Source of the DNA: a virus
Taxonomy: Duplodnaviria; Heunggongvirae; Uroviricota; Caudoviricetes
Strand: one strand, 5' to 3'
DNA length: 55,890 nt
Virus record (IMG/VR): IMGVR_UViG_3300044719_000150
Numbering within the stretch: the first letter of the stretch is position 1; the number at the start of each line of letters is the position of its first letter. Below the pieces are notes generated by a model. The model saw only the letters and a program-made list of their open reading frames with translations. It was not told the DNA's origin and searched no databases. This document shows, piece after piece, positions 3,601 through 43,893 of the stretch. The position numbers and the translations under genes were made by a program.

Positions 3601-3675
3601 CCGCGCGTCCGAAGTATGGGTGCCGGGAGCTGGATGGCGCGGCAGTTCATTGGGTTACGTGCGTGCCATGGCGCC
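3601..3675 (-). ncRNA. Two abutting tigRNA-like units (34-nt period) directly after the stop of 3675-4301
   Basis: GGCG-CCA-tggcacgca-CG-taac-CCA-atgaactgc-CG-cg-CCA-tccagctcc-CG-gcac-CCA-tacttcgga-CG-CGCGG. Confidence 0.85.
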
Positions 3676-4428: not shown

Positions 4429-5523
4429 TCACTCGTACTCGGTCGCGCCCTTGCGCTCCAGGTATGCGTCACTCACGAACTTCGCGATCATCCGGCCGCC
4501 GAGCACATCCGAGTACTGCTCGACCCACGGTCGCACCACGACGCCCTCGCGCAGCGTGCCAGGGTCGAGCCTGCTCTCCCGCTGGTTCGCCAGCCCCGCG
4601 ATCAAGTCGTAGTCGTACGGGCCCGTGTAGATGACCGGCGCAGTGGGAATACCGGCCGCCTTCGCGTCCTCCCATACGTCCAGCTGGTCGCGCCAGTATC
4701 GCCTGCCGTTCAGGCTCACAGCGATGTCGAACAGCACGTAGCCGAGCGTTTTGTCGCTGCTGGCGTCCGCGCCGTAGTGCAAGTCTTGCACGCCCTTGCC
4801 GTACACCTCGCCGAACAGGCCAATTGCGTCCACCTTCAGCTTGGCGCACAACTGCTGCGCGAACTCGAACAGCCTGTAACGGCGCACCGCGCGCCAGTAG
4901 ACGTTGCGCGTGTCCTCCTGGAGCGCCAGCGACTGTGCACCGACCCCCTTCGATGAGACGTACTCCCGCCCGTCGGCAGTCACCGTATAGAGGCAACACG
5001 TGCCGTGGATCTTCTCCGTGGCCGTCACCTGCATACCGGGCTGGAAGATCGTCGGGTAGCGCTTGATGTTCTCGATCTCGATCCAGCGCAGCAGGTCCGG
5101 CGCAGGCTCGACCTGACCGGCCATGCCGACCGGGATCGGCGGCACCCACTTGGTGATGCCAAGACGCTCGGCATAGTCCGCCTCGTGGCCCGGCGCGATG
5201 CTCGGGAAATTCTTGAACACGGCCCAGTCGATCGCTGCTGCCTTCGGGCGGCAGACGATGCCCTGCGACAACTCGCCGCGCAAGCGCACGGCCTTGACGC
5301 GGTTCTTATCCTTGCCCGCGAGCCTGCCGACCAGCCCCAGCTCCTCGATCAGCTCGGGCGGCAGGACGGCCTGCTCCGGGATGTAAAGCGCGTAGTCGCC
5401 CGTCTTGTAAACGCCCTTGCCGACGACGGCGCGGAACAGACCCACCTGGGCCAGCTCCAGCGCGTCCGCGTTGGGGTGCTCGAAGATCTCCAGGCGCTCG
5501 ATCGTGACCTTCAGGTCGCTCAA
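4429..5523 (-). CDS. RNA ligase, DRB0094/Rnl5 family
   Basis: N-terminal OB module HPNADALELAQV...YIPEQAVLP; motif I TEKIHGT; FGEVYG, EGVVV and AKFVSDAYL; TTG start at 5523 after AAAGGAGG. Confidence 0.9.
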   Translation of the reverse strand: MSDLKVTIERLEIFEHPNADALELAQVGLFRAVVGKGVYKTGDYALYIPEQAVLPPELIEELGLVGRLAGKDKNRVKAVRLRGELSQGIVCRPKAAAIDWAVFKNFPSIAPGHEADYAERLGITKWVPPIPVGMAGQVEPAPDLLRWIEIENIKRYPTIFQPGMQVTATEKIHGTCCLYTVTADGREYVSSKGVGAQSLALQEDTRNVYWRAVRRYRLFEFAQQLCAKLKVDAIGLFGEVYGKGVQDLHYGADASSDKTLGYVLFDIAVSLNGRRYWRDQLDVWEDAKAAGIPTAPVIYTGPYDYDLIAGLANQRESRLDPGTLREGVVVRPWVEQYSDVLGGRMIAKFVSDAYLERKGATEYE

Positions 5524-32734: not shown

Positions 32735-33567
32735 CCCGGATCCTCTACGACGGCATCAACACCGACGCGCACCTGATCCCCGCGAACGCGCAAATGGTCG
32801 CAGGGTACGTAGACGGCCTGTACGCATGGTCGGATGCCGACTGGGCGCGGTTCCCCAACGCCGTCAAGATCCGCATCGCGGTATTCGCCGACACCAACGA
32901 CGGCCACGTGCTGGACTGCGAGCCGGGCAACAACACCCCGGCCGAGTCCGTGGACTGGGTCCTGATGCGCCGCAAGGCCGGAGTAGAACCCACTGTATAT
33001 TGCGGCCGCAACACCTGGTGGCCGCAGATCCGCGCCGCTTTCGCTGCGCGCGCCGTCCCCGAACCGCACTACTGGGTCGCGGACTACAGCACCGGCCAGC
33101 AGATCCCCTCCGGCGCCATCGCGCTCCAGTACGCGGATATGGGCTCTTACGACCTGTCCGTGGTCGCCGACTACTGGCCCGGCGTGGACCCTGCGCCGAC
33201 GCCCGCACCCCTTCAGGAGGACCCTGTGGCTTACCTGCTAGACGTCCAGCCCGACCCCAATAACAAGAGCGTGAACCAGGGCATCTGGCGCCTGGAGGGC
33301 AATCTGCTCTTCCATGTGCTGCCCGATGCCATCGCAACCTTCCGCAGCTGGGGCGACAAGGAGGGGCCGATCAGTTTCGGCCAGTTCGAGACGATCAAGG
33401 CGGCTATCGCCGCGATGAACCCGGCGGTATCCGTCACCGTGGATGGCACGCAGCTGGCCGCCGCAGTCAAGGCCGCCCTGTCCGACGCCGGGCTGCTGGC
33501 CGCCCAGGGCGCCGCCATCGCGCACGCCGAGGCGGTCCAAGAGCACAACGACACCCCCGCGAACTGA
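32731..33567 (+). CDS. Endolysin, GH25-like muramidase
   Basis: AGYVDG, VLDCEPG, PTVYC, YWVADY, ALQY and YDLSVV motifs; ends the virion operon. Confidence 0.8.
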   Translation: MTRILYDGINTDAHLIPANAQMVAGYVDGLYAWSDADWARFPNAVKIRIAVFADTNDGHVLDCEPGNNTPAESVDWVLMRRKAGVEPTVYCGRNTWWPQIRAAFAARAVPEPHYWVADYSTGQQIPSGAIALQYADMGSYDLSVVADYWPGVDPAPTPAPLQEDPVAYLLDVQPDPNNKSVNQGIWRLEGNLLFHVLPDAIATFRSWGDKEGPISFGQFETIKAAIAAMNPAVSVTVDGTQLAAAVKAALSDAGLLAAQGAAIAHAEAVQEHNDTPAN

Positions 33568-33572
33568 GAGTC

Positions 33573-33602
33573 GAGCCCCGGTTCCGACCGGGGCTCTTTT
33601 TT
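33573..33602 (+). terminator. Intrinsic terminator after the lysin gene
   Basis: GAGCCCCGG-ttccga-CCGGGGCTC-TTTTTT. Confidence 0.9.
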
Positions 33603-33673
33603 CATGCCTTGACACTTGACGAAGTAATATGGCACTCTTGCAGGGCATCATCCCGAACAGCAAGGAGGTATGC

Positions 33674-34006
33674 GTGAAGCCCGAGATGGACCCGAAGTAC
33701 TGCCCTGATGCCGACGACATCGCCAGAGTCCTGATTCTCGCGGGGCACATGCCCTACCGGGAGGATCAAGACTGTTTCGGCGGCTTCGTCACCTATGGCG
33801 TCCACGACTGGATCAGCGTGTACCACCGACCGTCGAACCCCAGCGACTATCCCCCGGGCACCGAGGACGACCTGAAGATCACCGCCTATGCCCGCGCCCT
33901 CAAGGCCGTGGGCTATCTCATTCAGCCGCGCTGGTCCTATGTTAAGGACGGCAAGGACGGGGTAGAGCGGATCGAGCACAGCCTGATTGTGCGACTGCGG
34001 GATTAA
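33674..34006 (+). CDS. Hypothetical protein
   Basis: GTG start after AAGGAGG. Confidence 0.65.
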   Translation: MKPEMDPKYCPDADDIARVLILAGHMPYREDQDCFGGFVTYGVHDWISVYHRPSNPSDYPPGTEDDLKITAYARALKAVGYLIQPRWSYVKDGKDGVERIEHSLIVRLRD

Positions 34007-34010
34007 CCCC

Positions 34011-34048
34011 CGGCGGCGGCGCCCGTCAGCTCTGAGGCGCCGCCGCCG
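34011..34048. terminator. 13-bp hairpin between convergent genes
   Basis: CGGCGGCGGCGCC-N12-GGCGCCGCCGCCG. Confidence 0.65.
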
Positions 34049-34125
34049 CCCGGCCCTCACGACAGGGAGGAAAGGCCGGGAAGCGCGCGGGGTCCTGCGT
34101 CATCTCCCGCCCGCGCGCCGGAGAT

Positions 34126-34737
34126 CTAGAGCTGCGCGAGGGCGTCCAACCGCTCCAGGGCGCGCAGCACACGGCCACTCACATTGTCCACACCCTCGAT
34201 GGGGCTGAAGGCCGCCAGGTAATCCTGCCACACGGCCTGCGTGTGGTACTCCGTGATGCGCCGCAGCTTGCGCGCGAACCTGGTGTGCCGGATGAAGACC
34301 TCGGTGCGCAGGTGGGACACCTTGGCGCGGGCCAGCCGATAGCTGAACGCCATGGCACGGTCCCAGCCGTTGAGCCACTGGCGCCAGATCGCGTCGTGCC
34401 GGGCGTTGACGGACTCGTGGCCGTTGAGCATCGGCAGCCAGTGCAGGCTGCGCGGCATCTCGGTGGGGCTGACCGGCCGCAGGTTGTGCACCGGCTGGAT
34501 GGTGATGCGGGGGATGAAGCGCCGCCGGAGTCGCACTGGGGGGATCTTGGGCGCCGGGACAGGCGTGAGCGCTCGGCGGGGATGCCTGGGCGCAGGGTCG
34601 GGGTCGAGCGCCTCGAAGAGGCCGGTGACCTCTTCGTCCAGCTCGGCCAGCACGCTGCGGGCGCGGCCGGTGGTGCGGGGGGCTGGGCGCAGCTCGTTCA
34701 GGGGGTTCGCGCGCTCCAACATCGTTGTGGTGCCCAT
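34126..34737 (-). CDS. Hypothetical protein
   Basis: 203-aa ORF after GAGAGG RBS. Confidence 0.65.
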   Translation of the reverse strand: MGTTTMLERANPLNELRPAPRTTGRARSVLAELDEEVTGLFEALDPDPAPRHPRRALTPVPAPKIPPVRLRRRFIPRITIQPVHNLRPVSPTEMPRSLHWLPMLNGHESVNARHDAIWRQWLNGWDRAMAFSYRLARAKVSHLRTEVFIRHTRFARKLRRITEYHTQAVWQDYLAAFSPIEGVDNVSGRVLRALERLDALAQL

Positions 34738-34802
34738 CTACCTCTCCCTCTCGTCGTGCCCAACGCCTCCCGGCGACAGGACCTTACATCTTACAGGCTA
34801 CG

Positions 34803-35180
34803 CTAGTCTTCGTCTAGGCCTTCGGTCCTACGTTGCGCCCGCTGGGCCGCCTCGTCGTCGATGCACAGCGTCGCCACCCAGTAGCCGACCTGAACCAAAG
34901 TACCGGGCCTGCCGCAGAACTCGCAGATCGTGTACGACTCCTGCTCGTACCTGCGCACCACCTCATGCGCCGCCTGATTACCGGCGATGTAGAGCCGCAG
35001 ACCGCCGAACTTCGTTTTGACCTGGCGCGCCTCATAGGTGGGGCACACGGTCAGTAGCTCGGCGTGAGCGCGGGCCACCAGATCGCCCCAGCCGGGGCAG
35101 TATTCCTGGGGCAGGTCAGGGATCTGCTTCGGCCCCAGTCCGTGCCTGGGCAGGCCGGGGATCTCCTCTTGCTCGTTCAC
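34803..35180 (-). CDS. Conserved phage hypothetical protein (QVKxKFGGLR...CExCGxPG)
   Basis: Motif seen in the translation; GTG start after GGGAGG. Confidence 0.75.
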   Translation of the reverse strand: MNEQEEIPGLPRHGLGPKQIPDLPQEYCPGWGDLVARAHAELLTVCPTYEARQVKTKFGGLRLYIAGNQAAHEVVRRYEQESYTICEFCGRPGTLVQVGYWVATLCIDDEAAQRAQRRTEGLDED

Positions 35181-35193
35181 TGATCCTCCCGTG

Positions 35194-35352
35194 TTGCGGC
35201 GGTCTTGCTCTGGTTGTCGAGTGTGGGATGGCCGCAGCGGGGTCATCGTGGTCCTGCGTACGTATTATGGCTGCGGCGCGGTTATCCTGACCCTCATGAG
35301 CGGTATGGCCACAGCGTAAGATCCTTGGGATGCGGTGCGGGACTGGCTGCGG
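35194..35352 (-). ncRNA. Four-unit tigRNA-like (TIGR-type) array, 38-39 nt period
   Basis: ccgcag-CCA-gtcccgcac-CG-catc-CCA-aggatctta-CG-ctgtgg-CCA-taccgctca-TG-aggg-TCA-ggataaccg-CG-ccgcag-CCA-taatacgta-CG-cagga-CCA-cgatgaccc-CG-ctgcgg-CCA-tcccacact-CG-acaa-CCA-gagcaagac-CG-ccgcaa. Confidence 0.92.
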
Positions 35353-35364
35353 CTAACGTATCAC
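35353..35364 (-). promoter_or_regulatory. Recurrent motif GTGATACGTTAG abutting the four-unit array
   Basis: Exact motif; overlaps the TGA stop of 35361-35720. Confidence 0.7.
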
Positions 35365-35720
35365 AGAGTCAGTCCGCCCTGCTCCTTTTTCGGGGCTTCG
35401 ATGTCGAACAGCCCGCCGCCGAACTCCGACCGCCGCGCCTCAATCCTCGGCTTCGCCTCCATGTGCGCCTTGCGGCACGGCTGGCACAGGCCCTTGAGGT
35501 TCGCGTACGACCAGTTGGTGTCGTTGTAGTCCAGGTGCACGATCTCCAGCTTGACCCGCAGGCCGTCGCGCAGAGGATGCCCGTGAGGCTCGACGGCCCG
35601 GCAGCGGTCTTTGTGCTGCCCGCAGCCGCCGAGACACTCACAGCGCCGCTTGGCGCGATCAGCCACGATCTCCATCGTGATCCGGCCTTTGTCCGGGGGG
35701 ATCGCCGGTCGCCTCGCCAC
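35361..35720 (-). CDS. Small HNH-like zinc-binding endonuclease
   Basis: RAKRRCEC...C...LEIVHLDYNDTNWSYANLKGLCQPC; GTG start after GGAGGAG. Confidence 0.7.
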   Translation of the reverse strand: MARRPAIPPDKGRITMEIVADRAKRRCECLGGCGQHKDRCRAVEPHGHPLRDGLRVKLEIVHLDYNDTNWSYANLKGLCQPCRKAHMEAKPRIEARRSEFGGGLFDIEAPKKEQGGLTL

Positions 35721-36075
35721 GCTCTTGCTCCTCCGCTTGCCGTGCTGCCCGCTCCAGCAGTTCGACGACTTCCTCGGCCGTGCGCCCTGGAGTGTCGTTG
35801 AAAGCGTACAGGGTTTCAAAGCCTGGCAGCAGGCCGTTGACGAACACCCGCGCCATATCGGCGAGATCCATGCCTTCCGGAGTGTCGCCGATGCCGACCG
35901 GCGAGCCGGTGGTCGCGAGATTGATCGCGCCGACCGCGCACAGGCACGCGCCAGGAATCGCGTTGCCGCCGTCGTCGTACAACGTCCAGTCCTTCTGGAT
36001 GAAGCCGCGCACACGGATCAGCTCAGCCGCCCGCCAGAGCGCTTCCGGCAGAGTGCTGGCCAGCGCGTCAAGCAT
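35659..36075 (-). CDS. DUF6197-like actinophage protein
   Basis: AAELIRVRGFIQ...CAVGAI...FNDTPGRTAEEVVELLERAA. Confidence 0.7.
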   Translation of the reverse strand: MLDALASTLPEALWRAAELIRVRGFIQKDWTLYDDGGNAIPGACLCAVGAINLATTGSPVGIGDTPEGMDLADMARVFVNGLLPGFETLYAFNDTPGRTAEEVVELLERAARQAEEQERGEATGDPPGQRPDHDGDRG

Positions 36076-36955
36076 TGCGCTCCTCGTGCAGGCGCTTGCC
36101 CTCCAGCCACAGGTCGCGCAGGATCTCCTTGCTCATCTTGCGCATCGCGCGGGCGTGCTGGTGTCCGGCCGACAGTGGCGAACCGGCGAGGGCGGGCTTG
36201 CCGGAGGGGCCGCAGCGCTTGCAGTCCATCCGGTGCACGCCGTCCGCGTACTTGGCGCGGGTCTCGTCGTAGATGCGCCGATAGGGCGAGCAGTCGCAGC
36301 CGGACTGGTGCTTGACCGTCCCATCCTCCTGCTTGCAGCCCTTCTCCAACTGCTTGAGGCAAGCCTCCGCGATGAGGTAGACGCGCATCTTCGCGGCGTC
36401 ATTCCAGTTGGACTTGACGCCCTTGCGCCGGTGCGGGGCGATGCCGAGGTCGCCGGGCGGCAGGCCCTGTTCGCGCGGCACGACCTCCAGCGTCGCCGGA
36501 TCGATGCGCCACACGCCGTAGCCGCAGAAGCTCCACAGCTCGGAGACCAGGCGCGGCCGGTTGAAGATCGGATGCCAGTACGGGTCGCCGATCGCGGCGA
36601 GCAGCCGACCGCCCTGCTTGAGGCCGATGCCCTTGGTCTTCTTCACCCAGGGGCCGAGCGGATGCTGCTTGACGCCCTGCTCCAGGGATTTGACCGCGAG
36701 CGTCTCGGCCTCGCGCAGGGTGGCGACGATCTCCACGAGGCGCGCGACGGCCGGATGGCCCTCGTCCAGCCCGAACCCGCGCATCTCCCCGTCCTCGTCG
36801 GGCTCGGTGCGGGTGAACTGGCGCAGCCGGTTCTCGGTGGCGATGCGCAACTTCTCTAGGTCGGTCAGGGTGTCCGCGTGGACGGCGAGCATCGCGTCCT
36901 CGGGCCTTCGCGGGACAGGCTGGACAACGACAGGTTCCATGGTGGCTGTGGTCAT
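36068..36955 (-). CDS. tasA: TasA-like Nop-domain protein (IS110/Nop56-58 related) with no RuvC or HNH nuclease domain
   Basis: Coiled coil (LEKLRIATENRL), then KGIG...GRLLAAIGDP, LWSFCGYG, RRKGVKSNWN, YRRIYDETRAKY and HARAMRKMSKEILRDLW, resembling the IS110 C-terminal half; no N-terminal DEDD domain; CCA-N9-CG array directly upstream. Confidence 0.85.
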   Translation of the reverse strand: MTTATMEPVVVQPVPRRPEDAMLAVHADTLTDLEKLRIATENRLRQFTRTEPDEDGEMRGFGLDEGHPAVARLVEIVATLREAETLAVKSLEQGVKQHPLGPWVKKTKGIGLKQGGRLLAAIGDPYWHPIFNRPRLVSELWSFCGYGVWRIDPATLEVVPREQGLPPGDLGIAPHRRKGVKSNWNDAAKMRVYLIAEACLKQLEKGCKQEDGTVKHQSGCDCSPYRRIYDETRAKYADGVHRMDCKRCGPSGKPALAGSPLSAGHQHARAMRKMSKEILRDLWLEGKRLHEERNA

Positions 36956-36976
36956 GGGGTGCTCCCTTCGGTGAGT

Positions 36977-37084
36977 GCGGCGTTACGGCAATGGGTGGCG
37001 CTAGGCAGTGGCCGCGTGTGCTGAGTGGGCTCTGAAGCGGGTTTGGCGGCTGATGTCTGGTCTTGCGAAGGAGGTATGGCCGCG
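36977..37084 (-). ncRNA. Three-unit compact TIGR-type array directly upstream of the TasA-like gene
   Basis: cgcgg-CCA-tacctcctt-CG-caaga-CCA-gacatcagc-CG-CCA-aacccgctt-CA-gagc-CCA-ctcagcaca-CG-cgg-CCA-ctgcctag-CG-ccac-CCA-ttgccgtaa-CG-ccgc; 33-35 nt period. Confidence 0.85.
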
Positions 37085-37086
37085 CT

Positions 37087-37617
37087 CTAGAGTTCTTCGG
37101 GCACGCCCGTCGAGCCGTCGGGAAGCGTGCCGAGCAGGGTGCGCAGCGTCTCGACACTCAGGGCGCCGACGACCTCGCGGCCCTCCAGGATCAGGTTGTC
37201 GCGCAGGCGCTCGTAGCGCTCGGCCTTGCCGATGAAGCGCGCGGCGCGGGCCCGCAAGTCCTTGGCCATGTGCTCCAGGTCGTCCCGCGTGCAGTCCGCG
37301 AGGCGCTTGTGCCCGGCGACGGTCATGACACGGTCTTCCAGGACTTGCCGCCACCACTCGGTGATGCCGGTGACCTTCGCGGAGCGAGTGAGCACCTGCT
37401 GTGCCGACGGGGGCGTGGTGAACGCGCGCTCGGCCGCCATGCGCTGGCGCACGTAGCCGGGCAGAATCGAGACCAGGACTTCCCGCCACTGGTTGGCAGG
37501 AAGGTCATCGACGATGCAGCGGGCGATCTCGTCCGGATCGCTCAGGTCGGTCTCGCTCAGGATGCGCCGGACGCGGCCAGCGAGGTCCATGGGGCGCACG
37601 GGTTCTTCAATTAGCAC
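37087..37617 (-). CDS. Hypothetical protein; candidate TasA partner
   Basis: 176 aa; SAKVTGI...WRQVLEDRV...KRLADCTRDDL; its stop abuts the array. Confidence 0.7.
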   Translation of the reverse strand: MLIEEPVRPMDLAGRVRRILSETDLSDPDEIARCIVDDLPANQWREVLVSILPGYVRQRMAAERAFTTPPSAQQVLTRSAKVTGITEWWRQVLEDRVMTVAGHKRLADCTRDDLEHMAKDLRARAARFIGKAERYERLRDNLILEGREVVGALSVETLRTLLGTLPDGSTGVPEEL

Positions 37618-37685
37618 AGTAAGTGACTCCTCCCTGGTTGCCTACGGTTAACGTACCATGGACAGCCAGGGAGGCGCAACATACG

Positions 37686-37982
37686 TTAGTCCCCGACGAC
37701 GGCGAGGATGTCGTACGGGTTGAGCAGCCGATACTTCTCCCCGCCGCGCTCGATCTCCTGGCCGACGCTGCGGTTGATCAGAACCGTCTGGCCGACCTGC
37801 ACCTCCGGCTTGACCAGCGCGCCGCCGTCCGTGATGCGGCCCGGCCCGGTCGCCACCACGCGCACCTCGGCCAGCGGGGCGACGCTCTGCGGCACAATCA
37901 GGCCGCCGACCTTGTGCTCCGCCTCGTTGACCGGCGCCAGCGTCAGGATGCGCTCTCCACACGGAGCGATGTCAATCGTCAT
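37686..37982 (-). CDS. groES: GroES/Cpn10-like co-chaperonin
   Basis: PCGERIL...GGLIVP...VVATGPG...EVQVGQTVL...GQEI...KYRLL...DILAVV. Confidence 0.9.
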   Translation of the reverse strand: MTIDIAPCGERILTLAPVNEAEHKVGGLIVPQSVAPLAEVRVVATGPGRITDGGALVKPEVQVGQTVLINRSVGQEIERGGEKYRLLNPYDILAVVGD

Positions 37983-38038
37983 GCTCTCCCTCTCGTTGAA
38001 CCGCGCAGGGCCGTCGCGGGTGGACCCTGCGCGGGGAT

Positions 38039-43514: not shown

Positions 43515-43730
43515 GTGAGCAAGAAGTACGAACTGTCGATCACCGGCCCCGACGCCGAGCCCGAAGTGCCCGGCATGCCGGAGGTGATGGAGATCAGCAA
43601 CGGGACCACGGCGTGTAACACGTACGTGCGCCTCGGGCAGCGCGGCAACGACGTCACCCTCAAGGCGCCGAACGGCCACAAGATCCGCTACGCGACCACG
43701 CCGGACCCCTGGGGCCAGCCCCTCGGCTAA
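43515..43730 (+). CDS. Small hypothetical protein
   Basis: GTG start after GAGGAGG; its stop lies inside a motif copy. Confidence 0.65.
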   Translation: MSKKYELSITGPDAEPEVPGMPEVMEISNGTTACNTYVRLGQRGNDVTLKAPNGHKIRYATTPDPWGQPLG

Positions 43731-43738: not shown

Positions 43739-43893
43739 CGGCGGCCAGGTTCTACTCGTCAGCCATTCCTCCTTCGCCGCCGAAGCACGACCACCGCCAG
43801 CCAGTTGCAGTGCGCAAGCCCAGTGATCGAACGCTGGCGATCCAAATCACACCGGCCACTTCGGTAGCGACACCCAAGATGAACCCGCCGGTG
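43739..43893 (+). ncRNA. Three-unit stem-closed tigRNA-like array (about 55-nt period)
   Basis: CGGCGG-CCA-ggttctact-CG-tcag-CCA-ttcctcctt-CG-CCGCCG; CGCCAG-CCA-gttgcagtg-CG-caagc-CCA-gtgatcgaa-CG-CTGGCG; CACCGG-CCA-cttcggtag-CG-acac-CCA-agatgaacc-CG-CCGGTG. Confidence 0.92.

Follow-up and report, generated by a model that had tools for sequence, protein, structure and literature searches.

How can individual guides be released from an RNA array in which neighbouring units have a stem arm in common? TIGR-Tas systems, published in 2025, use guides made of two short spacers, each with a CCA box C and a UG or CG box D, that are closed by terminal pairing (Faure et al. 2025, PMC12045711); in the stem-loop systems studied so far, the guide hairpin stays intact and is cut out in the linkers at a CUU motif. 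The locus described here, found in a window of 55,890 nucleotides (the whole stretch of DNA analysed, IMG/VR record IMGVR_UViG_3300044719_000150, Caudoviricetes), has neither linkers nor such a motif. That it is a TIGR array is very probable. The overall best explanation, given a probability of roughly 0.5, is that of a compact stem-loop-class TIGR array in an actinobacterial phage, providing guides for TasA and matured by dividing each edge between the two units that it joins.

Architecture of the shared-edge array

Read on the minus strand (Table 1), the array is composed of four units of the form edge(6)-CCA-N9-YG-loop(4-5)-YCA-N9-CG-edge(6), that is, two 9-nt spacers per unit, each with its box C and box D. 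The GTGATACGTTAG motif comes first, followed by ccgcag (e0), unit 1, ctgtgg (e1), unit 2, ccgcag (e2), unit 3, ctgcgg (e3), unit 4 and ccgcaa (e4), with edge-to-edge periods of 38, 38, 39 and 38 nt; the downstream gene has its ribosome-binding site, GGGAGG, 3 nt past e4. Neighbouring edges pair over 6, 6, 6 and 5 bp when G-U pairs are allowed, and inclusion of the adjacent box nucleotides (G of the box D before the edge, C of the box C after it) brings the stems to 7 bp. The original prediction had described these five edges, the complementarity of each edge to both neighbours and a promoter-like motif abutting the first one, and the minus-strand reading agrees with it exactly in all of these respects.

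Since the linkers are squeezed to zero, each 6-nt edge serves two units, closing one as its 3' arm and opening its successor as the 5' arm; the alternation of two complementary edge forms is a requirement once this state is reached. Chance is an unlikely source of the pairing: two random hexamers of the window's composition pair over at least 5 bp with p = 0.009, for four such pairings in succession the probability falls to about 6e-9, and all four stems survive in only 4 of the 120 possible orderings of the five edges. Across the whole window, 20 units with a stem of at least 4 bp are found, against 2.6 in shuffled sequence. When each unit is folded alone its terminal stem forms, at -13 to -16 kcal/mol, which is the flank complementarity characteristic of stem-loop guides. 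The box C' of unit 2 is TCA, a form outside the TIGRFinder list that is nevertheless recurrent in this phage. No CUU occurs at any edge of the array, and the linkers that would carry it in stem-loop systems have a length of zero. As for dual-repeat features, the loops lack conservation, the edges are conserved but in two complementary forms, and the units measure 38-39 nt.

The possibility that the array is coding sequence was considered and rejected: the 147-aa open reading frame that begins inside unit 3 is an upstream extension of the downstream gene, which in its relatives starts at the GTG at 35180.

Table 1. Features of the shared-edge array, its surroundings and the other guide arrays of the window.
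Feature	Position	Strand	Remarks
Shared-edge array	35194-35352	-	Four units, five edges
GTGATACGTTAG motif	35353-35364	-	Adjoins e0 directly; resembles an extended -10 promoter (TGnTAnnnT); putative promoter
Edge e0, ccgcag	35347-35352	-	5' arm of unit 1
Unit 1 core	35315-35346	-	CCA, 9-nt spacer A, CG, loop catc, CCA, 9-nt spacer B, CG
Edge e1, ctgtgg	35309-35314	-	3' arm of unit 1 and 5' arm of unit 2
Unit 2 core	35277-35308	-	CCA-N9-TG-aggg-TCA-N9-CG
Edge e2, ccgcag	35271-35276	-	3' arm of unit 2 and 5' arm of unit 3
Unit 3 core	35238-35270	-	CCA-N9-CG-cagga-CCA-N9-CG
Edge e3, ctgcgg	35232-35237	-	3' arm of unit 3 and 5' arm of unit 4
Unit 4 core	35200-35231	-	CCA-N9-CG-acaa-CCA-N9-CG
Edge e4, ccgcaa	35194-35199	-	3' arm of unit 4; pairs at 5 of 6 positions
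Downstream gene	34803-35180	-	125 aa from a GTG start; without family match; has the array as its 5' leader; relatives start at the equivalent position
Upstream gene, small HNH endonuclease	35361-35675	-	104 aa; phrog_1571, E = 4.8e-14; stop codon overlaps the GTGATACGTTAG motif
tasA	36068-36955	-	295 aa; nuclease-less Tas (Nop/IS110-type RNA-binding), presumed guide partner; phmmer, AF2 model, Foldseek
Compact three-unit array	36975-37086	-	Directly upstream of tasA; inter-unit edges of 0 and 3 nt
Second array, three units	43739-43893	+	Private 6-bp stems; 10-12-nt linkers
Two-unit compressed array	3601-3675	-	Units parted only by cg (2-nt edge)
GTGATACGTTAG sites	275, 2307, 4330, 5739, 17857, 28298, 35353, 39800, 43470, 43727, 49723, 50191		

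The Tas protein and the class of the system

The tasA gene lies 0.7 kb upstream of the array on the same strand. A phmmer search of PDB sequences with its product retrieves TaTasR (9MTY, E = 1.1e-7) in three collinear segments, and the alignment to SpTasH, although weak (E = 0.097), is consistent with the one to TaTasR. In a Foldseek search with the AF2 model, built from 42 homologues (mean pLDDT 88.9), 9MTY again ranks first (E = 1e-7, 24% identity over 269 columns), followed by eight TasH chains with E < 2e-5, the IS621 bridge-RNA recombinases and archaeal Nop5. The model has two long N-terminal helices (residues 18-48 and 68-97), and the protein thus combines the coiled coil and the Nop-type fold of the family. 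It has no Pfam match and no RuvC or HNH region; in the absence of a nuclease domain it is classed as TasA. The original prediction of a TIGR-type guide array with a TasA nearby is borne out by these matches to TasR and TasH.

Only 6 residues follow the helix aligned with SpTasH residue 280, which leaves the protein without a counterpart of the Y289/H296 loop with which dual-repeat Tas proteins are equipped. Absence of this Y/H processing loop is a published hallmark of stem-loop-class Tas proteins, and the system is placed in the stem-loop class on this ground. It had been predicted to be intermediate between the dual-repeat and stem-loop types; the layout does mix traits, the contiguous units and conserved edges being dual-repeat-like and the paired edges and variable loops stem-loop-like, but the protein assigns the system to one class and a true intermediate type is not what it represents. 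Structures of stem-loop TasA proteins and a repressor function have been reported in 2026 preprints (Xu et al. 10.64898/2026.09.09.750476; PlTasA structures 10.64898/2026.08.11.744272), and by analogy the phage protein should bind DNA under RNA guidance and act as a non-cutting repressor.

A Cys/His-rich insertion spans TasA residues ~199-250, with H241, C245 and C248 invariant among the 42 homologues and C199 nearly so; it may be a zinc-binding element absent from TaTasR. In terms of nomenclature, PHROGs labels the TasA family "transposase". Homologues with about 50% identity occur in 91 phage records, mostly of Mycobacterium phages, and tasA relatives are also present in prophage regions of Streptomyces, Kitasatospora, Actinomadura, Mycobacterium and other actinobacteria. 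Among the phage homologues is gp71 of Mycobacterium phage Bethlehem (NC_009878.1, locus L004), annotated as a transposase or DNA-binding protein; three guide units with private stems occupy the 335-nt gap upstream of it, and the gp71 gene is found in 83 Mycobacterium phage records, these phages being cultivable. The region 33000-38000 itself gave no megablast match in the phage collection, the neighbours of tasA, like tasA, gave no match in Pfam, and no Rfam family matched anywhere in the window.

Three array designs in one phage

Besides the 6-nt shared edges described above, the window contains arrays of two other designs. The array at 43739-43893 has private stems, all perfectly complementary (cggcgg/ccgccg, cgccag/ctggcg and caccgg/ccggtg), and its linkers lack CUU; it constitutes a natural internal control for the shared-edge array. 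At the opposite extreme, edges of 0-3 nt are found in the arrays at 36975-37086, where a box D is followed immediately by the box C of the next unit, and at 3601-3675.

Competition between neighbouring stems

When the 184-nt array is folded with ViennaRNA, the stems of units 1, 2, 3 and 4 form with probabilities of 0.88, 0.12, 0.01 and 0.98. When the registers are forced, {1,4} comes to -52.6, {2,4} to -51.3 and {1,3} to -49.7 kcal/mol, a spread within 3 kcal/mol. In prefixes of growing length stem 1 forms first and stem 3 next, and the complete array prefers stems 1 and 4. Inclusion of the upstream coding sequence in the RNA leads to register {2,4}, and in an RNA that ends before the ribosome-binding site stem 1 (0.98) is accompanied by stem 4 (0.68) or stem 3 (0.30). 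The naked precursor thus holds at most two full stems at once, in registers that are nearly equal in energy and among which the transcript ends choose; because these ends re-sort the registers, the array behaves as a frustrated system with no built-in winner. The precursor is no more stable than shuffled sequence (z = -0.13), a value that makes overall stability uninformative either way. Since e0 and e2 have the same sequence, e1 can slide its pairing from one to the other without losing a base pair, in the manner of branch migration.

The conflict concerns the full stems. For a single guide it is enough that the right half of the edge before it, as 5' arm, pairs with the left half of the edge after it. 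The inner 3-bp pairings (cag/ctg, tgg/ccg, cag/ctg and cgg/ccg) hold in all four units, so that all units can be closed simultaneously by 3 bp plus the box C/D pair. The original prediction that adjacent units cannot both form their terminal stems is thereby correct for the full stems, which compete for the edge between them; short closures can coexist if the edge is split 3+3. It had further deduced that units 1+3 or 2+4 must be obtained, or else that maturation is stem-free; this outcome is not forced, because each edge can be split in this way with every unit keeping a 3-bp helix, a state that arrays with edges of 0-4 nt in this phage and its relatives suggest to be tolerated.

Covariation of the terminal helix and recurrence of the layout

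A set of 56 units from the window and nine related loci was used to examine covariation. The seven flanking pairs are paired in 92% of cases, against 57% in shuffles, and double-sided changes number 120 against 32; shifting the partner columns abolishes the signal. The filter by which units were collected demanded the inner four pairs and left the outer three free, and among the 56 units these unselected outer pairs still form in 44-48. The terminal helix is under selection as a structure.

The shared-edge layout is real biology, recurring with edges of 3, 4, 6 and 10 nt. Three relatives have an array of this kind at the corresponding intergenic position. In L001 (TasA 75% identical) the syntenic array retains ccgcag/ctgtgg/ccgcag and has the edges ctggcag/ccgcag/ctgtgg/ccgcag around three units, with spacers wholly different from those of the phage and some degenerate boxes. 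In L002 (TasA 64% identical) the edges are ccgc/gcgg/ccg/cgg with periods of 36 and 35 nt, and in L003 (TasA 62% identical) the units of the array, which lies upstream of tasA, follow one another every 35 nt with 3-nt edges alternating between cgg and ccg and have closures of 4 bp only. A more distant IMG/VR phage (L029, IMGVR_UViG_3300036861_000853) carries at least 6 units with a 42-nt period at 4669-4910, its 10-nt edges alternating between tgRccggcgg and ccgccggtca to give mutually exclusive stems of 10-11 bp; the G and A variants of the edge both pair with the same U. This last array is the most extreme case of the layout. A survey of 59 loci, comprising 464 units and 184 adjacent pairs, found overlapping stems in only 16 pairs from 5 loci, and L001, missed by the strict scan, makes a sixth; the usual design across these loci is one of private 9-12-bp stems with short linkers.

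Could the alternation be a historical by-product, a two-unit module having been duplicated and its edges kept as a sequence read by TasA? Complementarity of the outer halves of the edges is mathematically identical to a period of two in half-edges, and duplication of such a module would also yield this period. However, units of the same parity are little alike (spacer identities of 0/9 and 1/9 for U1/U3, 5/9 and 3/9 for U2/U4), the alternation recurs independently on unrelated edge sequences of each of the four lengths, G-U/A-U variants keep the pairing (ctgtgg and ctgcgg here, tgGcc and tgAcc in L029) and the stems of private-stem units covary strongly, all of which makes this origin very unlikely. 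Identities slightly above random, of 6/9 between the B spacers of U2 and U3 and 5/9 between the A spacers of U2 and U4, are in its favour and could be a trace of unit duplication.

A promoter-like motif at the first edge

The GTGATACGTTAG motif occurs 12 times in the window against 1.3 expected (Table 1). In eight cases a guide unit follows on the same strand, at a distance of 6-16 nt for seven copies and of 45 nt for the eighth; three others precede genes, and the copy at 43727 adjoins the 43739 array in opposite orientation. Several of the copies that precede units are located in gaps between oppositely oriented structural genes, some of the units being antisense, and units in such gaps need a promoter of their own. 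The motif looks like a dedicated guide promoter of the extended -10 type; a simple scan for sigma-70 promoters and terminators around the array found nothing.

As a rule of thumb, transcription starts about 7 nt after the -10 hexamer. The stems of solitary units start 6-11 nt past the hexamer and e0 only 2 nt past it, the first edges of L001 and L002 being similarly near; with this spacing, a transcript from GTGATACGTTAG would lack most of e0. Such a naked, e0-truncated RNA would be biased to stems 2 and 4, which form with probability 1.00 when the folded sequence starts at the last bases of e0. TIGR arrays are reported to begin with a truncated edge, which fits the loss of e0 (Faure et al. 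2025, PMC12045711).

These observations lend themselves to an explanation in which the transcript start sets the register: the motif would be the array's promoter, transcripts starting inside e0 would have units 2 and 4 as hairpins, read-through from the tasA-HNH operon would include e0 and permit other registers, and promoter use would pick the guide set. The abundance and placement of the motif and its nearness to e0 all argue for this explanation. It is improbable nonetheless, as the start site comes from the rule of thumb, the sigma-70 scan found no promoter at the array, the motif could equally be an operator and has one copy facing the wrong way beside the 43739 array, and an RNA that ends before the ribosome-binding site changes register again. 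Equally doubtful is the related idea that the alternating edges form an RNA register switch through which promoter choice or the level of TasA selects odd or even guides; if it were true, one 160-nt locus would yield two alternative guide sets at different infection stages, and cutting of the array would uncouple or unmask the ribosome-binding site of the downstream gene.

Routes to maturation

The route preferred here, tentatively and at slightly less than even odds, supposes that a TasA dimer would load on every unit of a putative array transcript through the box C/D and C'/D' pairs, with each edge shared out roughly 3+3 among the flanking units; a cut within the edge by a host RNase would then free four guides of ~38 nt, each closed by ~3 bp plus the box C/D pair and akin to dual-repeat tigRNAs. 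One argument for it comes from arrays of the same clade with edges of 0-4 nt, some of them beside tasA, which keep intact boxes and 9-nt spacers and suggest that long stems are dispensable and that this TasA clade tolerates short closures. In dual-repeat tigRNAs, a closure of about 2 bp suffices once the guide is bound by protein (Faure et al. 2025, PMC12045711).

Several observations speak against division of the edges. It needs no complementarity of their outer halves, yet the edges are complementary from end to end, over 6 nt in this array and over 10 nt in L029, an argument for full stems at some stage; the solitary units of the phage have stems of 6-9 bp; and the array lacks a linker or a CUU at the stem base.

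Full stems are the basis of the main competing explanation, a possible but rather unlikely one, in which each transcript adopts one register and matures only the units that are hairpinned in it (1+3, 2+4 or 1+4), those in between serving as disposable linkers; all four guides would then be present in the population of transcripts, with at most two from any one RNA. This would account for pairing over the entire 6-7 nt in this array and the entire 10-11 nt in L029, for an edge length that equals the stem length of the solitary units, and for the hairpins that published stem-loop tigRNAs keep intact; the near-equal energies of the registers and the succession of stem 1 and stem 3 in growing prefixes are also in line with it. 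On the other hand, half of the guides would be wasted in every transcript; all four units retain intact boxes and distinct spacers; unit 3 is almost never stemmed at equilibrium in the isolated array; and the scheme is unworkable for the same-clade arrays with 0-4-nt edges. On balance, the evidence leans towards division of the edges rather than alternative registers. Cutting of alternate stems by RNase III, which would free every unit, was also considered; plausible for the 10-11-bp stems of L029, it is unlikely for stems of 7 bp and 4 bp.

Targets and the downstream gene

Targets within the phage were sought as spacer A, a gap of 0-8 nt and the reverse complement of spacer B, or the opposite order, with at most 3 mismatches; the 48 matches, against ~44 for shuffled spacers, reveal no self-targets. 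A search of IMG/VR for exact target patterns of units 1 and 2 gave one viral contig each, of 51-54% GC and unrelated to the phage; one match each is the chance expectation, so these are not counted as targets.

In the minimum free energy fold, the CCCC that ends spacer B of unit 3 pairs with the GGGAGG of the downstream gene, outside stem 4 (35185-35245, minus strand). Processing of the array might thus affect translation of that gene.

Relation to known systems and significance

The closest known systems are of the stem-loop TIGR-TasA type. They include PlTasA, which comes from a gut contig of Peromyscus leucopus (PMC12045711), as well as BlTasA and others (10.64898/2026.09.09.750476), and the phage system shares with them the two 9-nt spacers with CCA as box C and YG as box D, flanks that pair into a terminal stem, a variable loop between the spacers, a nuclease-less TasA without the Y/H loop and guides placed flexibly around and away from tasA. 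In contrast to them, the phage array has no linkers and no CUU at the stem base, its stems are only 6-7 bp long, each arm between units is common to two of them, and two complementary, repeat-like edge forms alternate.

Dual-repeat arrays (FpTasA, TaTasR and SpTasH; PMC12045711) resemble it in their contiguous, linker-free units, in a conserved short edge common to neighbours, in a unit length near 36 nt (38-39 nt in the phage, 35-36 nt in L002 and L003) and probably in a truncated first edge. They differ in having one edge repeat and one conserved loop repeat where the phage array has two complementary edges and non-conserved loops, and in Tas proteins that cut the edge with a Y/H dyad, which the phage TasA lacks. 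In archaeal box C/D sRNAs with Nop5, too, the RNA has two guide segments, C/D and C'/D' boxes and a closing terminal stem, and its protein partner has a Nop fold; by comparison, the phage array has tandem units and an expected DNA target and is without K-turn/L7Ae or fibrillarin partners.

Overlapping stems of adjacent units do appear in the accessible part of the 2026 TIGRFinder preprint, in the legend of Extended Data Fig. 2f, as a counting rule only; the general phenomenon is the same, but complete edge sharing, strict alternation, edge conservation and the folding conflict do not figure in that text, which never mentions mycobacteria or actinobacteria. The type of system is published, and overlap of stems has been seen before.

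Stem-loop guides are a class whose published Tas proteins are without the processing site known from dual-repeat systems and in which the CUU of the linkers is so far the sole clue to maturation. An array that is free of linkers and CUU and that shares its arms constitutes a natural minimal substrate for this process, since maturation must here proceed by a cut within a helix arm, by alternative folding or by stemless closure driven by the protein. As three array styles coexist in one phage, they can be compared with a single TasA. The answer would bear on the packing density that synthetic TIGR arrays for multiplexing can reach, and on whether the folding register tunes guide output.
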